Shown here in pieces: positions 49,927-57,728 of a stretch of DNA of 64,000 nt; position 1 is the stretch's first letter, and every line of letters starts with the position of its first letter. The notes beneath the pieces are model-generated. The model was not told the DNA's origin, made no database searches, and saw only the letters and a program-made list of their open reading frames with translations. The translations under genes were made by a program, and so were the position numbers. Source of the stretch: Candidatus Altimarinota bacterium (GTDB taxonomy: Bacteria; Patescibacteriota; Gracilibacteria; 1-14-2-50-48-13); the NCBI GenBank assembly GCA_046314355.1, contig JBKBWQ010000001.1:768001-832000 (forward strand), in the 5' to 3' direction.

Positions 49927-51645
49927 TTATCTCAGATCATAGATAAAAATACTATTTCCAATGGTAGTATGCGGTAGCTGATCAAGATAAGAATAATCCT
50001 CTGCAGTCAGCCCTCTCTGCTTTACCCATTTACTTTGCTCAATCCATACGGGAAATATAGCAAAGATGCCCTGAGGACGTCCCCAGTCTCCATGCCAAGC
50101 TTTGAGAATGCCTTTTTTATCATAAAAGTTCAGAGGGGTTTTTCCCCAATAATCTACGTAAATAGCATCTATGCCCTGCTGCTCTGCCCATACAGAAAGG
50201 CGTTTGAGATTCTGTCCCCAGTCCACATTTGAATCAGAGAGATGTTTATATCCATTCAAAGAACCTCCAGAGAAATCATTGAAATAGGAGAGATAAAATG
50301 GATATGTACTATAAATAGTTACGCACTGAGTCAGAATCAATATACCAATCAGTATATATTTATGAGCATACTCCCATCTGCTTATTATCCAGACTCCGAT
50401 AACAGGAGTAAGTGCGAGCACAGGAGCAATATGACGGATACCAATATTCAGTGTCGACAATAGCGAAAGTAGGAGATACAGACCAGAAAATCCTAGCATC
50501 AAAAGAAGTGCGGTTTCAATTTTTTTCTTTTTCCAGAGCGAGAGACCTAGTATAGCTGCCCCAAGCAAAGTAAGAATCAAAATTGCAGGACTTTCCTTAT
50601 AGAGCCATGCCTTCGGGAAATAGTACCACCACCCCTTTCCCATTGTGCCATACTCTCCATCAAGAAACTGAGTGCCAGTTACCTCACTTCTTTGGATAGA
50701 GCGGTTACCCGCATAATCAAGTCCTGAAAGATAAGAAGGAATTGCCTTAGTAAATGTATAGTCAGAAAAGATAAGCTCCAGCTGTTTGATAGGAGCGGGC
50801 ATCAGAGAAGTATTTACAAAGGATCTCAGCTGAGATATAGGTGTATTAATATTAAAGAATGTATAGACTATATATACACAAAAGGCAGCCACAGAAGCAG
50901 TATTTAGAGTATTTTTAAAGATATTTTTACTTTTTTCTTTATCATACTTATACGTAATAAAAGAAAAGATGAGCAGTATTACAAAAATATAGAGTGTGAG
51001 TAGCACTCCTGAAAATTTTGTAAGCAGTACTCCCCCGAGTCCTAGCCCAAGATACAATGCATTTTTATGAGTAGGATCACGCATAAAAACTGCGGTAAGC
51101 AGAAGACTGATCACAGAGAATAATGCAATCCCCACATCCGTGGTGACATACCTGCTATGAGCAAAAATATTTGGTTCAAAGGCAAGAAAAAATAATGCAA
51201 TGAGAGACCAAGTAGGCGTAAGAAACTTTTTAAATAATACTCCGCAGACAAAAAGAAGCAGTCCATGAAATATGAGCACAGCAAACCTCGTCCAGAATAA
51301 AATATCATCTATATTATTCCCGCTTTCAAAAAGTATTTTATTTCCCTCCTGCCACTGATTCGGCATTCTGAGACCTGGTAGTTTGTAATCGATATCTTGA
51401 AAAAGAAGCGGGATAGCAGAGATCACTTTCACAAGCGGAGGATGCTCTATATTGAGATTATAATTCAGATTCGTAAGCGTGGAGTATCCTGAGACAATAT
51501 GTGCCACTTCATCAATAGTGACACTGTCATCTTTGACACTTGTGATACCTATTATGATAAATAAGGCACAAATAACCGATACTATGATGATAAAATACTC
51601 CTTTACGATACTTCTGATGAATTCAGTTTTCAAAGTAGGTAACAC
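49927..51645 (-). CDS. GT-C fold glycosyltransferase (GT39/ArnT/PMT-like)
   Basis: TIDEVAH, EHPPLVK, VTTD, TKFS, GWWYYF, IGIRH, DSNVDWGQ; many TMs. Confidence 0.85.
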   Translation of the reverse strand: MLPTLKTEFIRSIVKEYFIIIVSVICALFIIIGITSVKDDSVTIDEVAHIVSGYSTLTNLNYNLNIEHPPLVKVISAIPLLFQDIDYKLPGLRMPNQWQEGNKILFESGNNIDDILFWTRFAVLIFHGLLLFVCGVLFKKFLTPTWSLIALFFLAFEPNIFAHSRYVTTDVGIALFSVISLLLTAVFMRDPTHKNALYLGLGLGGVLLTKFSGVLLTLYIFVILLIFSFITYKYDKEKSKNIFKNTLNTASVAAFCVYIVYTFFNINTPISQLRSFVNTSLMPAPIKQLELIFSDYTFTKAIPSYLSGLDYAGNRSIQRSEVTGTQFLDGEYGTMGKGWWYYFPKAWLYKESPAILILTLLGAAILGLSLWKKKKIETALLLMLGFSGLYLLLSLLSTLNIGIRHIAPVLALTPVIGVWIISRWEYAHKYILIGILILTQCVTIYSTYPFYLSYFNDFSGGSLNGYKHLSDSNVDWGQNLKRLSVWAEQQGIDAIYVDYWGKTPLNFYDKKGILKAWHGDWGRPQGIFAIFPVWIEQSKWVKQRGLTAEDYSYLDQLPHTTIGNSIFIYDLR

Positions 51646-51766
51646 AGTCTTTCAAAAAGAGAAATAAGTGCACCGAGTATAGCACGCTCAAGGAAAAATT
51701 ATACTGAAAATTAAGATATAAGCATTATATCTATTTTATACATTCAATGCTGTTGGATCAGTTAAC

Positions 51767-54313
51767 CTATTCTTTATCGGCAAATACAACTAGCCGTTTA
51801 GAATACTGCTGTTGTTTCTTATCCCATACCCCGTCGCAAGTAATAAGATTCAAGTGCGCCTTACCGTCGCTAGAGCTGAAAATGGCAGCTGCATCATCAG
51901 AAGCACCATAAAGTTTGCTCTCACGCACAATAAATGAAACTATATTCCCTTTCTCATCCTTTACTAAAATCTTATCTCCTGGTTTTAGTTTTTGTAAATC
52001 TGCAAATACACCTCTCACATTATTGATCCAGTTGAGGTGTCCATCCATCACTGCGCTGCCAATATCACCTGGGTATGTTCCAAGTTCATACCAGCCTGCA
52101 TCAGAATAAGACTTTGGAATGTCCATCGCACCGTCTGCTGTCAGCCCTACTTTCTGGACTGCAGCATTAACCGCGATACTTGGGATAATAATATTTACTG
52201 GCAACACCCTTGTTTCAGGCACAACCCCTGTTTTTGGAAGCTTAGGAATAATAACAGGTGAAACAACGATAGGTGCTGGAACTGGAGCAGCGACTGGGGT
52301 GATAGCAGCAGGGACTCCAGGAACTGGAAGTGCAACAACTACAGTAGCTACTGCAATATCTCTGACTCTTATACCATTGCCAGTACCGCTCGCGATAGCA
52401 GTGTTTGTAGTAGTAGTTCTTAGGTATGCTCTACACGTATAGATCCATCTTTCATTCGTATCAAGCTTTGAATCTTTGTTTGTATCTCCAGAAACATATC
52501 TCACAGGGCGACATTTATCATCCGTCAAAGTCACGTTACTAAGTGGGACAGTACCAGTATTATTAATGATTTCTGTATAAGTTGCCCACCCCCCGCCTGA
52601 AGGTAAAGTAAGTGGTCTTGGAATTTTTATTACATGAATAGAAGGAGCCACAATAGGCTCGCCGACTATAACAGTAGCACTGGCTATGTCTACAGTACTG
52701 ATGTTATTTGCCCACCCAGTGGCAACTACTGTATTTGTATGAGTCTCTGTAAGTGTTGTGGTGCATTTATGTACCCAGACTTCCGTCAGATCAAGGATTG
52801 CATTCCCGTTGGTATCTCCTGAGAATAAGGCAATAGGACTGCATGTATCCCCCACTAACGTGATATTATTTACTACTACTGTTCCAATATTACGTAGAGT
52901 GTACGTATATTCTACTGCTCCAGGACCATTAGGTAGAGCAAGAGGACTTGGGGTTTTTACAATATCAATAAGCGGAGGAACTGCAGGTGTAGTAACTGGT
53001 GTACTCACAGGAGGAGTATATCCCCCTCCACCACCGGAAGTGGGAGGGAAAGGAATATCATTATTTGTAATAATACAAAAACGTGCCTCACTCACATTGA
53101 GCGTAACAATACCTAACGCATTACAGTCACCGGAAAATGACTGCGTATAATTAGGGTCAGCCGTTTCTGTCACCGTATATATAGCTGGAGCAAGTGTATT
53201 TGTAATACCTGAGACAACAGGTGCCCCATTGATGAATAATGGGAAATCGGCAATCACTTTAGTTCTGCCGCTATCATTGATCACCACCTTTGTGACTGTA
53301 ATTGTAGAAGGTGCAATATCATTATTTGTAACCGTACATGTCCTATCATTTTCTGATGCAAGAATAATATTTCCAGCCGCATCACAATCTCCGCTATAGG
53401 TCACCGTATACCCAGCAAGTGCATCTTCACTTACCGCGTAGGTACCTGGATCCAAAACATAAGTAGTCCCCAATACATCAACTCCTGCCTGCGGGCTGCC
53501 TGCAACATCAATGCCGCCTGTAGTTACATGCAGTGTCGCATCAGAAGAAACTCCAATACCTGTATTATCATTAATCACTGTCTTGATTACATGAAGCGTT
53601 GCAGTACATGTGGGAACAGTAATAGTATTCGTATCAGTAGTCACAGTACCTGCCCCAAGCGACAATGCTCTACCATTCCAAACTGTATTTGCTCCGATAG
53701 TAATGGCTGTAGCATCATCAATCACAGTTCCAGCAAAAATAGTATTTGCCGCAAGAGTAGTCGCTGCGGTTGGCGTCCAAAATACATCGCAAGCTGATGC
53801 TCCAAGTAGCGTCACAACGGAACCCGCCGTAGACGTAAGTGCTCCTGTCGGTCTAAAAATATAGGTACCCGCACCGCTCAATGTAAGTGGTCCTCCGATA
53901 TCCATAGCACCCGTGCTACAGTAGACTCCAGGTGTATATACTCCAACTGGACCATGAGTTGCATCTGTGGAAAGATCGATAGCTCCAGCAGCAAAAGTAA
54001 AGGTACAAGGTTGAACTCCTAAAGCACCAAGCGCAGTATTTACATCAATACGCGCAGCCGGTGTAGGGGCACCAGGACCATAACTGGTATGAATACCAGC
54101 AGGTACCGTTGCCGGTGGAGTAGTAAATCCAATACCGCCGTCGATCGTTGTACCCGCGGCAACATTCGTATATGTTCCTGCAAGAACGCCGTAAGTCTCA
54201 CCTGTTCCAAGATCAGGAGTCGTAGCTGCATTAGCCACATTTCCTGAGAAACCAAATAATAATGTAAAAGCGAATACGACTACAATCGTATTCTTCCTAA
54301 GGAAATTTATCAT
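51767..54313 (-). CDS. ice-binding-like (DUF3494) adhesin with Ig-like repeats, LPKTG motif and fused class F sortase
   Basis: Signal peptide; YGVLAG, TPGVYC, GTYIF, CDVFW, FAGTV, GRAL (DUF3494); KTVIND...TCTVTNND repeats; LPKTG at 52226-52240; sortase GWY, GH, LITC, R motifs. Confidence 0.85.
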   Translation of the reverse strand: MINFLRKNTIVVVFAFTLLFGFSGNVANAATTPDLGTGETYGVLAGTYTNVAAGTTIDGGIGFTTPPATVPAGIHTSYGPGAPTPAARIDVNTALGALGVQPCTFTFAAGAIDLSTDATHGPVGVYTPGVYCSTGAMDIGGPLTLSGAGTYIFRPTGALTSTAGSVVTLLGASACDVFWTPTAATTLAANTIFAGTVIDDATAITIGANTVWNGRALSLGAGTVTTDTNTITVPTCTATLHVIKTVINDNTGIGVSSDATLHVTTGGIDVAGSPQAGVDVLGTTYVLDPGTYAVSEDALAGYTVTYSGDCDAAGNIILASENDRTCTVTNNDIAPSTITVTKVVINDSGRTKVIADFPLFINGAPVVSGITNTLAPAIYTVTETADPNYTQSFSGDCNALGIVTLNVSEARFCIITNNDIPFPPTSGGGGGYTPPVSTPVTTPAVPPLIDIVKTPSPLALPNGPGAVEYTYTLRNIGTVVVNNITLVGDTCSPIALFSGDTNGNAILDLTEVWVHKCTTTLTETHTNTVVATGWANNISTVDIASATVIVGEPIVAPSIHVIKIPRPLTLPSGGGWATYTEIINNTGTVPLSNVTLTDDKCRPVRYVSGDTNKDSKLDTNERWIYTCRAYLRTTTTNTAIASGTGNGIRVRDIAVATVVVALPVPGVPAAITPVAAPVPAPIVVSPVIIPKLPKTGVVPETRVLPVNIIIPSIAVNAAVQKVGLTADGAMDIPKSYSDAGWYELGTYPGDIGSAVMDGHLNWINNVRGVFADLQKLKPGDKILVKDEKGNIVSFIVRESKLYGASDDAAAIFSSSDGKAHLNLITCDGVWDKKQQQYSKRLVVFADKE

Positions 54314-54573
54314 TATATTTGGGTAACAGTTATATACTGACAATCATATCACGAATACTGCTTTACATGTAAAAAATCTATTGTTGAATTATAAAACTCT
54401 GTTAATTGATTAGGATACATATCCATCAAAAAGTAAATTAATCTCCTAGCTCCTGGTAGGCATAGCGTAATGGATACTCCTAAATCATATCGTAAATAAA
54501 CTTAACTTTTGATAACCTTGATTTTTAGCAGCATTAGAAATATTATTATCTATTATTTTCTGATGACTCTCCT

Positions 54574-55542: not shown

Positions 55543-56277
55543 ATGCCTGAAGGTCCATCTATCATTATACTAAAAGAAGAACTGCTTCCTTTTAAGGGGA
55601 AGAAAGTCATAGAAGTATCAGGAAACAGTAAACAAGATATCCAGAGAATAAAAGGCAAAAAGATTTTTGATTTTCAAAGCTGGGGAAAGCATACGCTGAT
55701 ACAGTTTCAGGATTTTTTTGTGAAGATTCATCTCCTCATGTTTGGAAGTTATAGAATCAACGAAAGAAAAGAAGAGAGAGAACCAAGACTTTCTCTGAAA
55801 TTTGCAAAGGGTGAAATAAATTTTTATAGCTGTGCAGTGACAATTTTTGAGTGACAAACAAAGGATATTTATAACTGGACTACTGACATTATGTCAGAGA
55901 ACTGGGATCCTGAAGCAGCTTATAAAAAATTAAAATCAATGCCAGATACGCTTGTCTGTGATGCACTGCTGGATCAGAATATTTTTTCAGGAGTGGGCAA
56001 TATTATAAAAAATGAAGTATTGTTTAGAATACGGGTTCATCCTTCAAGTACTATTGGCGCCCTTCCCTCCAGGAAACTTCGAGAACTCATCGAAGATGCG
56101 CATACGTATAGTTTTTTATTCCTTGAATGGAAAAAAGCATACACCCTTAAAAAACATTGGCAGGTACATACCAAGAAAGAATGTCCAAGAGATCATGAAA
56201 AAGTGAAGAAAGAATATCTTGGTAAGACTCACAGAAGAACCTTTTTTTGTGAGAAATGCCAAATACTCTATCTCTAA
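55543..56277 (+). pseudogene. Fpg/Nei-family DNA glycosylase interrupted by one in-frame TGA
   Basis: MPEGP N-terminus, WGKH, IHLLMFG; TGA at 55852; the same frame continues to LLDQNIFSGVGNIIKNE (H2TH) and a C-terminal zinc finger. Confidence 0.8.
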
Positions 56278-56933: not shown

Positions 56934-57728
56934 ATGAAAATTGTAAAAATGATTGTAGGTATCATAACAGTTATCCAGTGTGTAGGGTGTTCAGTACAAC
57001 CATTAGCTGCCATTCCTTCTGTACAGGCTGTAGCAATGGATACTTCAGATGTAAAAGTTATAGAAACTCATACACATGAAGATGAACATGCATCAAGTCC
57101 AGTTATTACAGAAGTATCTGTAGAAAAAAGTGCAAAACAGAAATTTGTTGAAGAACTTATCAGTAAGTTTCCAGCACATCTTTCTACAAGTCTTACTCTC
57201 ATACAGGTTAACGATAGTTTCGGAGTAAGAGGACTCTCAAACGGATCTCGTATGTATATCAACCTTGGAAAGATGTCCGACCAGGAACTTTCCGCTGTAG
57301 TTATACATGAGCTCGGTCATGTTATAGATCTAGGTTATCTCTTAGGTAAAGAGACTCCTAGTCCATTTATGGATGGTACCTCACAAGTGTATGCAAATGA
57401 CCCTAGTGTCGGCTTTTATTCTATTAGCTGGGAAGCTAGCAATAAAAGAAAAAGCAGAACCCCTCTGGATTATGTAAGTGGCTATGCCATGAGTGATCCT
57501 TTTGAAGACTTCGCAGAATCTTTTGCGTACTATGTTTTACAGGGGCAAAACTTTAGAAAAATGGCTAAGGAAAACGAAGCTCTCAAACAAAAATACTCCT
57601 TTATTAAAGAATTTATTTTCCAGAATAAAGAATTTGATCTTGGAGAAGCAGCTTATATTTCAGACGGTCGTTCATATGACGTCACCGTTCTGCCATATAA
57701 GTTTGAAAACCTAATTGCAGCATTGTAA
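56934..57728 (+). CDS. secreted/lipoprotein zinc metallopeptidase
   Basis: Lipobox-like CVGC, HELGH, YVSGYA...EDFAES; TTGACA-N16-TAAAGT upstream. Confidence 0.75.
   Translation: MKIVKMIVGIITVIQCVGCSVQPLAAIPSVQAVAMDTSDVKVIETHTHEDEHASSPVITEVSVEKSAKQKFVEELISKFPAHLSTSLTLIQVNDSFGVRGLSNGSRMYINLGKMSDQELSAVVIHELGHVIDLGYLLGKETPSPFMDGTSQVYANDPSVGFYSISWEASNKRKSRTPLDYVSGYAMSDPFEDFAESFAYYVLQGQNFRKMAKENEALKQKYSFIKEFIFQNKEFDLGEAAYISDGRSYDVTVLPYKFENLIAAL

Follow-up and report, generated by a model that had tools for sequence, protein, structure and literature searches.

In the window analysed here, a stretch of 64,000 nucleotides of contig JBKBWQ010000001.1 from Candidatus Altimarinota bacterium, an ultra-small bacterium that is uncultivated, one gene on the reverse strand encodes a putative surface adhesin, its LPKTG sorting motif and a class-F-like sortase domain as a single polypeptide (protein P0001, Table 1). 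Judged from its sequence, this gene is an in-frame fusion of an LPxTG surface protein to the dedicated sortase that is normally encoded next to it, and phylogenetic analysis of the adhesin part indicates that such fusions have arisen at least five times from an adhesin–sortase gene pair. The open reading frame (ORF) as such extends from a TTG start over 51767..54343 (-) and would encode 858 aa. No clear Shine-Dalgarno sequence is found upstream of the ATG at 54313, and a scan of the gene for promoters, ribosome-binding sites and terminators gave counts not above those of shuffled sequences.

The passenger and the enzyme are both recognized by Pfam profiles. The Ice_binding/DUF3494 profile matches residues 49-232 with 64.4 bits (cut-off 28.7), SpaA_2 matches in two stretches with 34.5 bits (cut-off 25), and the Sortase profile (PF04203) matches residues 708-847 with 71.9 bits (cut-off 26.6). 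DUF7507 is likewise matched in two stretches, at 26.4 bits and hence slightly below its cut-off of 27; this region is the best-conserved part among the homologues. Twelve of the thirteen cysteines of P0001 form six pairs within the passenger domains, the thirteenth being the unpaired catalytic Cys826. Inspection of the sequence of P0001 revealed neither a hydrophobic helix nor a basic tail after LPKTG. An anchor helix ahead of the sortase barrel is also absent, as only 10 non-hydrophobic residues lead from LPKTG to the first strand. An earlier, sequence-only reading of this DNA had described a fused polypeptide with these domains and an intact His, Cys and Arg, which the Pfam matches and the translation bear out, and its claim that the transmembrane helix and basic tail of the substrate as well as the membrane anchor of the sortase are absent agrees with the sequence.

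The ancestral arrangement is apparent from the relatives of the gene. With residues 560-848 as query, 225 proteins were retrieved at E <= 1e-3, of which 120 were listed. Among the 105 non-fused homologues listed, an LPxTG-type motif followed by a hydrophobic stretch and a basic tail forms the C-terminus in 91, the motif is accompanied by an odd or truncated tail in 10, and it is absent from the last 70 residues in 4. A scan of species-representative genomes provided 78 loci, and in 71 of these the sortase is an ORF of its own within the adhesin's locus, mostly the next one downstream in the same orientation; this count overstates adjacency, as one pattern was used per part and the best-covering loci were kept. 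Four loci are fused (L013, L014, L015, L048), and three hold the adhesin alone, at least one of them being cut by a contig end. In the split loci examined in detail the sortases carry N-terminal anchor helices.

A similar picture was obtained from 60 relatives of the window's genome. The gene is fused in G016, which belongs to the same class as the window's genome, while G014, G023, G025 and G056 carry the adhesin with a separate sortase nearby and G030 has a broken adhesin beside a sortase. The G014 adhesin terminates in ...PKLPNTGFPPEGENIPWNIVFLSSILVASVSFYVVLRKKA, and its 225-aa sortase starts with an anchor helix; the G023 locus is of the same type, with a sortase that has an SLH-like N-terminal part (L010 1508-2635). 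No homologue was found in three genomes of the same family, and the distribution is patchy. In the G030 locus (L011, C4:4500-9500) the adhesin homologue is fragmented by TAA/TGA stops and the adjoining 191-aa sortase is intact.

Comparison of the two forms locates the change at the junction. Of the substrate the fused genes retain 'LPxTG-[FV]xP' and of the sortase 'LPxxIxIP'; the helix and tail of the former, the intergenic region, and the anchor and linker of the latter, which lie between these in the two-gene form, are missing. Other arrangements at this position were also seen. Three large proteins, P0354 (1997 aa), P0359 (1322 aa) and P0363 (1043 aa), hold the motif, the substrate helix with an RRR tail, a second helix and the sortase in one ORF, and such fusions that keep both membrane helices represent a possible intermediate form. 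In a further variant (L006/L012 of G025, P0048, P0087), two split adhesins end in LPKTG followed by 'FPPSE..W..YLRLF.PLL' instead of a helix and basic tail. This tail of 23 residues is conserved and is not a membrane helix; the partner sortase keeps its anchor, and the tail looks like a third kind of sorting-signal tail.

The fusion recurs in other genomes. Besides P0001, at least 14 fused proteins combining adhesin domains with Sortase are present among the 120 matches listed. The 15 fused proteins that were aligned share 39-70% identity with P0001, and P690, L692, P693, T695, G696, H759, C826 and R840 are invariant in all of them. The segment between motif and barrel ranges in these 15 proteins from about 7 to about 60 residues and is never a membrane helix. 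P0020 is also fused, with its contig ending inside the sortase, and P0139 is fused with a different passenger. Further fused members are P0307, P0312, P0315, P0321, P0325, P0332 and P0338, and in two others the motif varies (LPNTA in P0324, TPKTG in P0164). The total amounts to about 26 clusters at 90% identity, all in Patescibacteria. Source labels of these clusters include Candidatus Paceibacterota, Uhrbacteria, Peribacteria/Peregrinibacteria and Staskawiczbacteria, although submitter labels are unreliable, with several plainly related loci labelled Gammaproteobacteria.

The number of origins was estimated from a quick IQ-TREE analysis (LG+G4) of the adhesin part, with 15 fused and 59 split rows over 557 columns. 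On this tree the fused label needs seven changes, at least five of which are forced by branches with SH-aLRT >= 95. The fused proteins fall into the groups {P0001, P0003, P0004, P0006}, {P0011, P0021, P0022, P0019, P0032} and {P0012, P0016} and four single rows, and a single fused clade is rejected (delta log-likelihood 665, approximately unbiased test p 6e-37). The tree does not separate gain from loss, and recombination among adhesin genes could inflate the count of origins; fusion rather than fission is indicated because the split state is held by a large majority and because two membrane helices would be hard to recreate by fission. A tree of the sortase domain (167 rows, 146 columns), in which 10 of 164 branches are well supported, scatters the fused rows among the stand-alone ones and forces at least two changes. 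Recent horizontal transfer was considered from composition and rejected: the gene has a GC content of 0.44 against about 0.38 in its flanks, but its GC at third codon positions (GC3) is 0.283, compared with 0.342 and 0.405 in its neighbours. The excess in GC is attributable to the protein being rich in Gly, Ala, Pro and Thr.

The possibility of an artefact was addressed with public sequencing runs. The sole public run that holds the stretch, X1, is labelled as a hot springs metagenome and is probably the source sample; among the public runs holding this DNA no RNA run is listed. A single Logan contig of X1 spans 51700-53200 without a joint, matches the window at every letter there and has no indels, and so crosses the junction region 52190-52240 where continuity of the reads had been in question. 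This contig derives from a second assembler on probably the same data and is not an independent sample; independent support comes from the other genomes. The sequence-only reading had allowed that the fusion might be an assembly artefact or a one-off deletion between adjacent substrate and sortase genes. The contig, together with the about 26 clusters of the same design and the five or more origins, speaks against both. A deletion between neighbouring genes is indeed borne out as the way in which the fusion arose, but as an event that was repeated and retained.

Assignment of the sortase to a class requires some qualification. The best NCBIfam match is the class F sortase model (NF033748, E 3e-33), at 114.6 bits and thus below the curated cut-off of 166; stand-alone relatives of the sortase score 111.6 and 122.5 bits against the same profile, likewise below the cut-off. 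From these scores the clade is class-F-like, outside the curated class F subfamily, and the earlier designation 'class F' stands as the nearest class only. H759, C826 and R840 are invariant in 53 of 53 proteins, fused and stand-alone. Among 1.84 billion representatives, 12,021 relatives of the sortase module were found at E <= 1e-3, and in only 3 of the best 150 does an LPxTG motif stand just upstream of the domain. One of the matching proteins, P0225 (2166 aa), shows 19 stretches that match query residues 38-97 and has no LxxxTC motif; it looks like repeats of a piece of the sortase fold.

The label 'ice-binding', which had also been applied to this protein, holds for family membership. The domain matches the DUF3494 family profile, its AlphaFold2 (AF2) model shows the beta-solenoid with flanking helix, and its PDB sequence matches are 5uyt, titled 'Ice-binding protein' (E 7.6e-14), and 6bg8. 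DUF3494 domains are very common on surface proteins of Patescibacteria. That the sole run with this DNA carries the label hot springs metagenome makes an ice-related role doubtful, and the beta-solenoid more likely serves adhesion or structure in a general way. A search of the available full texts found no paper linking ice-binding proteins with the Candidate Phyla Radiation.

The fold of the protein and the placement of its motif were studied by modelling, using a 15-sequence alignment for the full-length AF2 model and a 53-row alignment for a model of the fragment 646-848. In the full-length model all domains are folded (mean predicted local distance difference test score, pLDDT, 79.1). The DUF3494 domain reaches a pLDDT of about 85-93, with a helix at 84-100 and short strands over 129-232, and the linkers 425-441, 666-687 and 696-705 fall below 50. 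The sortase barrel has a pLDDT of 94-98 in the fragment model, while the LPKTG segment is at 50 or slightly above in the full-length model and at 67-74 in the fragment. Foldseek searches with the fragment model retrieved solved class C, E, A and D sortases (E about 1e-9, with hits at 2.6e-9 and below; 19-25% identity), the top matches being the class C (pilus) sortases 6bwe, 5k9a, 3o0p and 2w1j. The structure matches also include 7d6t, whose title gives a sortase C 'with the C-terminal cell wall sorting motif'.

For recognition of the motif, the sortase (701-848) and the segment 646-700 were modelled as a complex, both drawn from a single alignment. The interface score ipSAE was 0.91, 0.90 and 0.91 in three runs, compared with 0.01 for the best of three controls; in a calibration whose counts hold roughly, 116 of 157 solved complexes attained the mark for this score, as did 2 of 215 mismatched pairs. 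At least 92% of contacts are common to the runs, with a pLDDT of 61-67 for the partner. Residues 690-693 are in modelled contact with 729-730, 757-758, 802-812, 824 and 840, and the interface list spans 757-765 and 824-826, thus including His759 and Cys826. LPKTG is modelled inside the catalytic groove, whose lining includes His759, Cys826 and Arg840, and this supports a competence to bind the motif, whether in cis or in trans.

The fused proteins and their relatives differ in how they could be held at the cell. In the fused clade P0015, P0017, P0021, P0022 and P0032, about 20 extra residues separate the N-terminal hydrophobic core from the usual cleavage position. By this pattern the clade may remain anchored in the membrane at its N-terminus, and the pattern of P0001 is a standard cleavable one. 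Among 108 longer sortase relatives, 24 carry SLH domains N-terminally and 12 carry PG_binding_1; examples of relatives with either kind of domain are P0270-P0295, P0147, P0296 and P0297. These architectures suggest that sortases of this clade can act from the wall as well as from the membrane, and the membrane anchor seems dispensable in them.

The window's genome (1.69 Mb, 98% complete) contains two Sortase-family matches. The second sortase, encoded at C1:356908-357987 (L001 856-1935), has 359 aa with a cytoplasmic N-terminal part of ~120 residues and one central membrane helix; its best classes are C, D and E, all below the cut-off, and the genome holds no other class-F-like sortase. A phmmer search of 2,348 ORFs of the genome with the adhesin matched only itself, so that no paralogue is present. 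Nine ORFs of >=150 aa contain LPxTG, none with a helix and tail after the motif. A few ORFs terminate in VPQTGPE or APQSGPE followed by a helix and a basic tail (C1:649525-650271, 611329-611982, 611979-613292 and 555996-558635), and from these non-LPxTG signals they may be substrates of the second sortase. The genome also has three penicillin-binding protein transpeptidase ORFs, from which it follows that the cell makes a peptidoglycan wall and that a wall acceptor is available. Elsewhere, the fused domain is the sole Sortase-family match in G347 and G348 (completeness not given), and additional sortases stand beside the fused gene in G016 (one) and G349 (two).

In combination, these data support the interpretation of the sequence-only reading, in which the protein is a self-processing transpeptidase; self-cleavage, action in cis or in trans, and the acceptor (wall, polymer or host) are what we infer. 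The reading favoured here, and held with moderate confidence, is that the protein processes itself and uses its own wall as acceptor; the position of the motif in the groove is modelled, and the steps of catalysis are inferred. The protein would be exported by Sec and its signal peptide presumably removed, after which the sortase domain would bind LPKTG, either its own or that of a neighbouring copy. Attack of Cys826 on the Thr695-Gly696 bond would then link the adhesin (about residues 30-695) to the sortase domain as a thioester, which an amine would resolve, most probably one on a peptidoglycan stem peptide or on lipid II from the wall of the producing cell. In this way the adhesin would become covalently attached, and a sortase domain of roughly 150 residues would be released. 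In such a scheme the covalent tether would replace the membrane co-anchoring of the two-gene form and fix enzyme and substrate at 1:1, and the protein would be a self-contained device for anchoring, probably used little more than once. The broader idea of a free, membrane-independent, single-use 'auto-sortase' that would ligate its adhesin to any amine it meets, on a host wall or on its own copies, we regard as doubtful.

Several points weigh against self-processing at the cell's own wall. A soluble sortase would have no obvious access to membrane-bound lipid II, and no visible element retains the protein at the cell before ligation. The second, membrane-anchored sortase of the genome might process LPKTG. 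The fusion is also rare: of 300 other genomes drawn evenly from the phylum (a tally that includes the unpublished genome G207, with one stand-alone row), 31 carry a close homologue (E <= 1e-25), and all 33 of the 33 matches in these are frames of 126-349 aa, none fused. The fused clades are small, with at most five members, and could be tolerated variants and not an improvement. On the side of the models, the pLDDT is low at 696-705 and in the LPKTG block, and docking may be in cis or in trans; the pass of the complex model may reflect memory of solved sortase–peptide complexes, and the calibration is approximate because our own alignment was fed to that model.

Of the other explanations, a non-functional accident, i.e. 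a recent deletion or an assembly error joining two genes that are now decaying, is largely refuted and hardly credible. The rarity of fused forms and a junction that resembles a simple in-frame deletion between neighbours would fit it, but the Logan contig crosses the junction without differences, the fused proteins have diverged to 39-70% identity and yet keep LPxTG and the triad invariant, the origins number at least five, and the low GC3 of 0.283 is like that of the AT-rich host genome. It is also improbable that the fused sortase leaves its own chain untouched, with LPKTG being cut by the membrane-anchored second sortase and the C-terminal domain set free as a passenger, or with LPKTG serving as an inhibitory pseudo-substrate comparable to the class C lid. 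A second sortase with a membrane helix is present in the genome, G016 and G349 hold additional sortases, and a lid would show the same occupancy of the groove. However, the fused domain stands alone as Sortase-family match in G347 and G348 (completeness not given), the second sortase of the window's genome is of another class with likely substrates of VPQTG/APQSG type, and the other substrates to be expected are missing, there being no canonical LPxTG ORF with helix and tail in the genome. Moreover, the motif is a true, invariant LPxTG and not a degenerate lid motif.

Two further alternatives accept self-processing with a different acceptor. In self-polymerization, another copy would attack the acyl-enzyme at LPKT through a lysine or its N-terminal amine, giving covalent pilus-like fibres with release of one sortase domain per step. 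The SpaA_2 and DUF11-like Ig domains do resemble those of sortase-assembled pilins, a dedicated sortase beside a single substrate gene recalls pilus operons, and pilus-type class C sortases are among the solved structures nearest in fold. We nevertheless consider polymerization unlikely, given that the sortase is F-like by sequence and not class C, that no minor or basal pilin genes adjoin (the window's neighbours are not conserved in related loci), and that neither a YPK pilin motif, a crude test since acceptor lysines need not follow a motif, nor any acceptor lysine was identified. Alternatively, the released protein could ligate its adhesin to amines of a host wall as a covalent tether or mark, a possibility we judge very unlikely. 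No element for retention in membrane or wall is visible after cleavage of the signal peptide, and a ligase that is soluble and complete in itself could reach distant targets; moreover, all cultivated Patescibacteria are described as episymbionts on other microbes (PMC11623550). Conversely, the other end of the adhesin has no link to the producer, so that a tether would need a second attachment, and the N-terminus resembling an uncleaved anchor in one fused clade fits retention on the producer.

Table 1. Layout of the fused adhesin–sortase gene, with positions in the window
Feature	Position	Strand	Basis or remark
Whole coding sequence, P0001	51767..54313	-	848 aa + stop; start placed at ATG 54313, protein begins MINFLRKNT
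Sec-type signal peptide, residues 1-29 (MINFLRKNT, hydrophobic core, putative cleavage VANA/A)	54227..54313	-	cleavage site predicted from sequence pattern
DUF3494 (PF11999) ice-binding-like beta-solenoid with flanking helix, residues 49-232	53618..54169	-	Pfam, PDB sequence match, AF2
Two SpaA_2 (prealbumin-like/Ig-like) domains, residues 237-420	53054..53605	-	Cys pairs C310/C326, C397/C413
Gly/Pro/Thr-rich linker PFPPTSGGGGGYTPP..., residues 421-447	52973..53053	-	model: disordered
Two DUF7507 (DUF11-like) Ig-like domains, residues 448-660	52334..52972	-	Cys pairs C491/C517, C601/C627
Pro/Val/Ala-rich stalk, residues 661-689	52247..52333	-	sequence, AF2 model
LPKTG sorting motif, residues 692-696	52226..52240	-	translation; modelled in catalytic groove
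Linker VVPETRVLPV, residues 697-706	52196..52225	-	stands where the two-gene form has substrate helix, basic tail and sortase anchor helix
Class-F-like sortase catalytic domain, residues 707-848	51770..52195	-	Pfam, NCBIfam, AF2, Foldseek
Codon of His759, catalytic His (MDGH)	52037..52039	-	translation and alignment
Codon of Cys826, catalytic Cys (LNLITC)	51836..51838	-	translation and alignment
Codon of Arg840, catalytic Arg (KRLVVF)	51794..51796	-	translation and alignment

The genes around the fusion were also inspected. The gene immediately downstream, in the same orientation (49927-51645, -), encodes a PMT/PMT_2-like membrane glycosyltransferase, and that it might glycosylate the Thr/Pro-rich linkers is a guess. 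A Fpg/Nei-type DNA glycosylase is split into 55543-55854 (PF01149, N-terminal) and 55891-56277 (PF06831, H2TH) on the plus strand, 36 bases apart, and may be a frameshifted or broken gene. The product of the ORF at 56934-57728 (+) is secreted or lipoprotein-like; it matches Peptidase_Mx1/Mx (putative zinc metallopeptidase) weakly and ATLF below threshold. A conserved neighbourhood was considered and rejected, as the PMT-like glycosyltransferase, a BrkB-like protein, a 78-aa ORF and an HATPase protein have no homologues in the 78 related loci; these neighbours do not belong to the system.

By the general rule of sortase biology, enzyme and substrate are separate proteins, both held at the membrane until transfer to lipid II. 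If the proposed mechanism is correct, a covalent tether can replace the co-localization of sortase and substrate at the membrane, and acceptors outside the membrane, such as the mature wall, other proteins or other cells, become a testable question. For protein engineering it would supply a natural self-ligating module that is compact, at about 160 residues. Separate gene pairs, fused genes and, in other lineages, fusions that keep both helices form a series that provides a clean example of repeated gene fusion, and the arrangement may explain how abundant DUF3494/DUF7507 surface proteins of Patescibacteria are displayed.

The closest known system is classical LPXTG sorting, as carried out by housekeeping sortases (S. 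aureus SrtA) and by the class F enzymes of Actinomycetota. The motif, the His-Cys-Arg sortase fold and a substrate with Ig-like stalk domains are shared with it, and the two-gene relatives are canonical, pairing an LPxTG protein with helix and basic tail with an N-terminally anchored sortase. In contrast, the fused protein unites enzyme and substrate 1:1 in one polypeptide with both membrane anchors deleted, and its enzyme would release itself. The two-gene pairs of Patescibacteria (L009, L010, L017, L051) are more similar still, with up to 63% identity in the adhesin (G014) and about 50-60% in the sortase, the same 'PKLP[KN]TG[FV]xP' context of the motif and 'GLPxRLxIPxI' ahead of the first strand; the window's gene differs in lacking the helix and tail of ~30 residues, the intergenic region, and an anchor and linker of ~60-80 residues. 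In class C pilus sortases an N-terminal lid occupies the active site. The segment N-terminal to the barrel is likewise predicted in the substrate groove here, but it carries a true LPxTG and not a DPW-type motif, and the sequence class is F-like. Hedgehog/Hint autoprocessing also employs a C-terminal catalytic domain, a thioester at the junction and transfer of the passenger to an external nucleophile; the likeness is one of logic alone, as fold and chemistry are unrelated.

Engineered fusion tags (Mao's method, BISOP) combine sortase and LPXTG in one chain, and self-cleavage at the motif was observed (PMC2901362); because these tags self-cleave, the chemistry works within a fusion. In the tags the sortase precedes the motif and it is the target that is set free, whereas the present fusion is natural, with an N-terminal passenger and a C-terminal sortase. 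A full-text search, with most subscription journals outside its reach, found no paper on a natural LPXTG–sortase fusion and returned engineered fusions and unrelated work only; PMC13278184 and PMC10924467 were judged not relevant to a natural fusion. The feature is a variant form of sortase-mediated surface display whose chemistry is not new, and what it adds is a clear origin and a fusion that was repeated and maintained.

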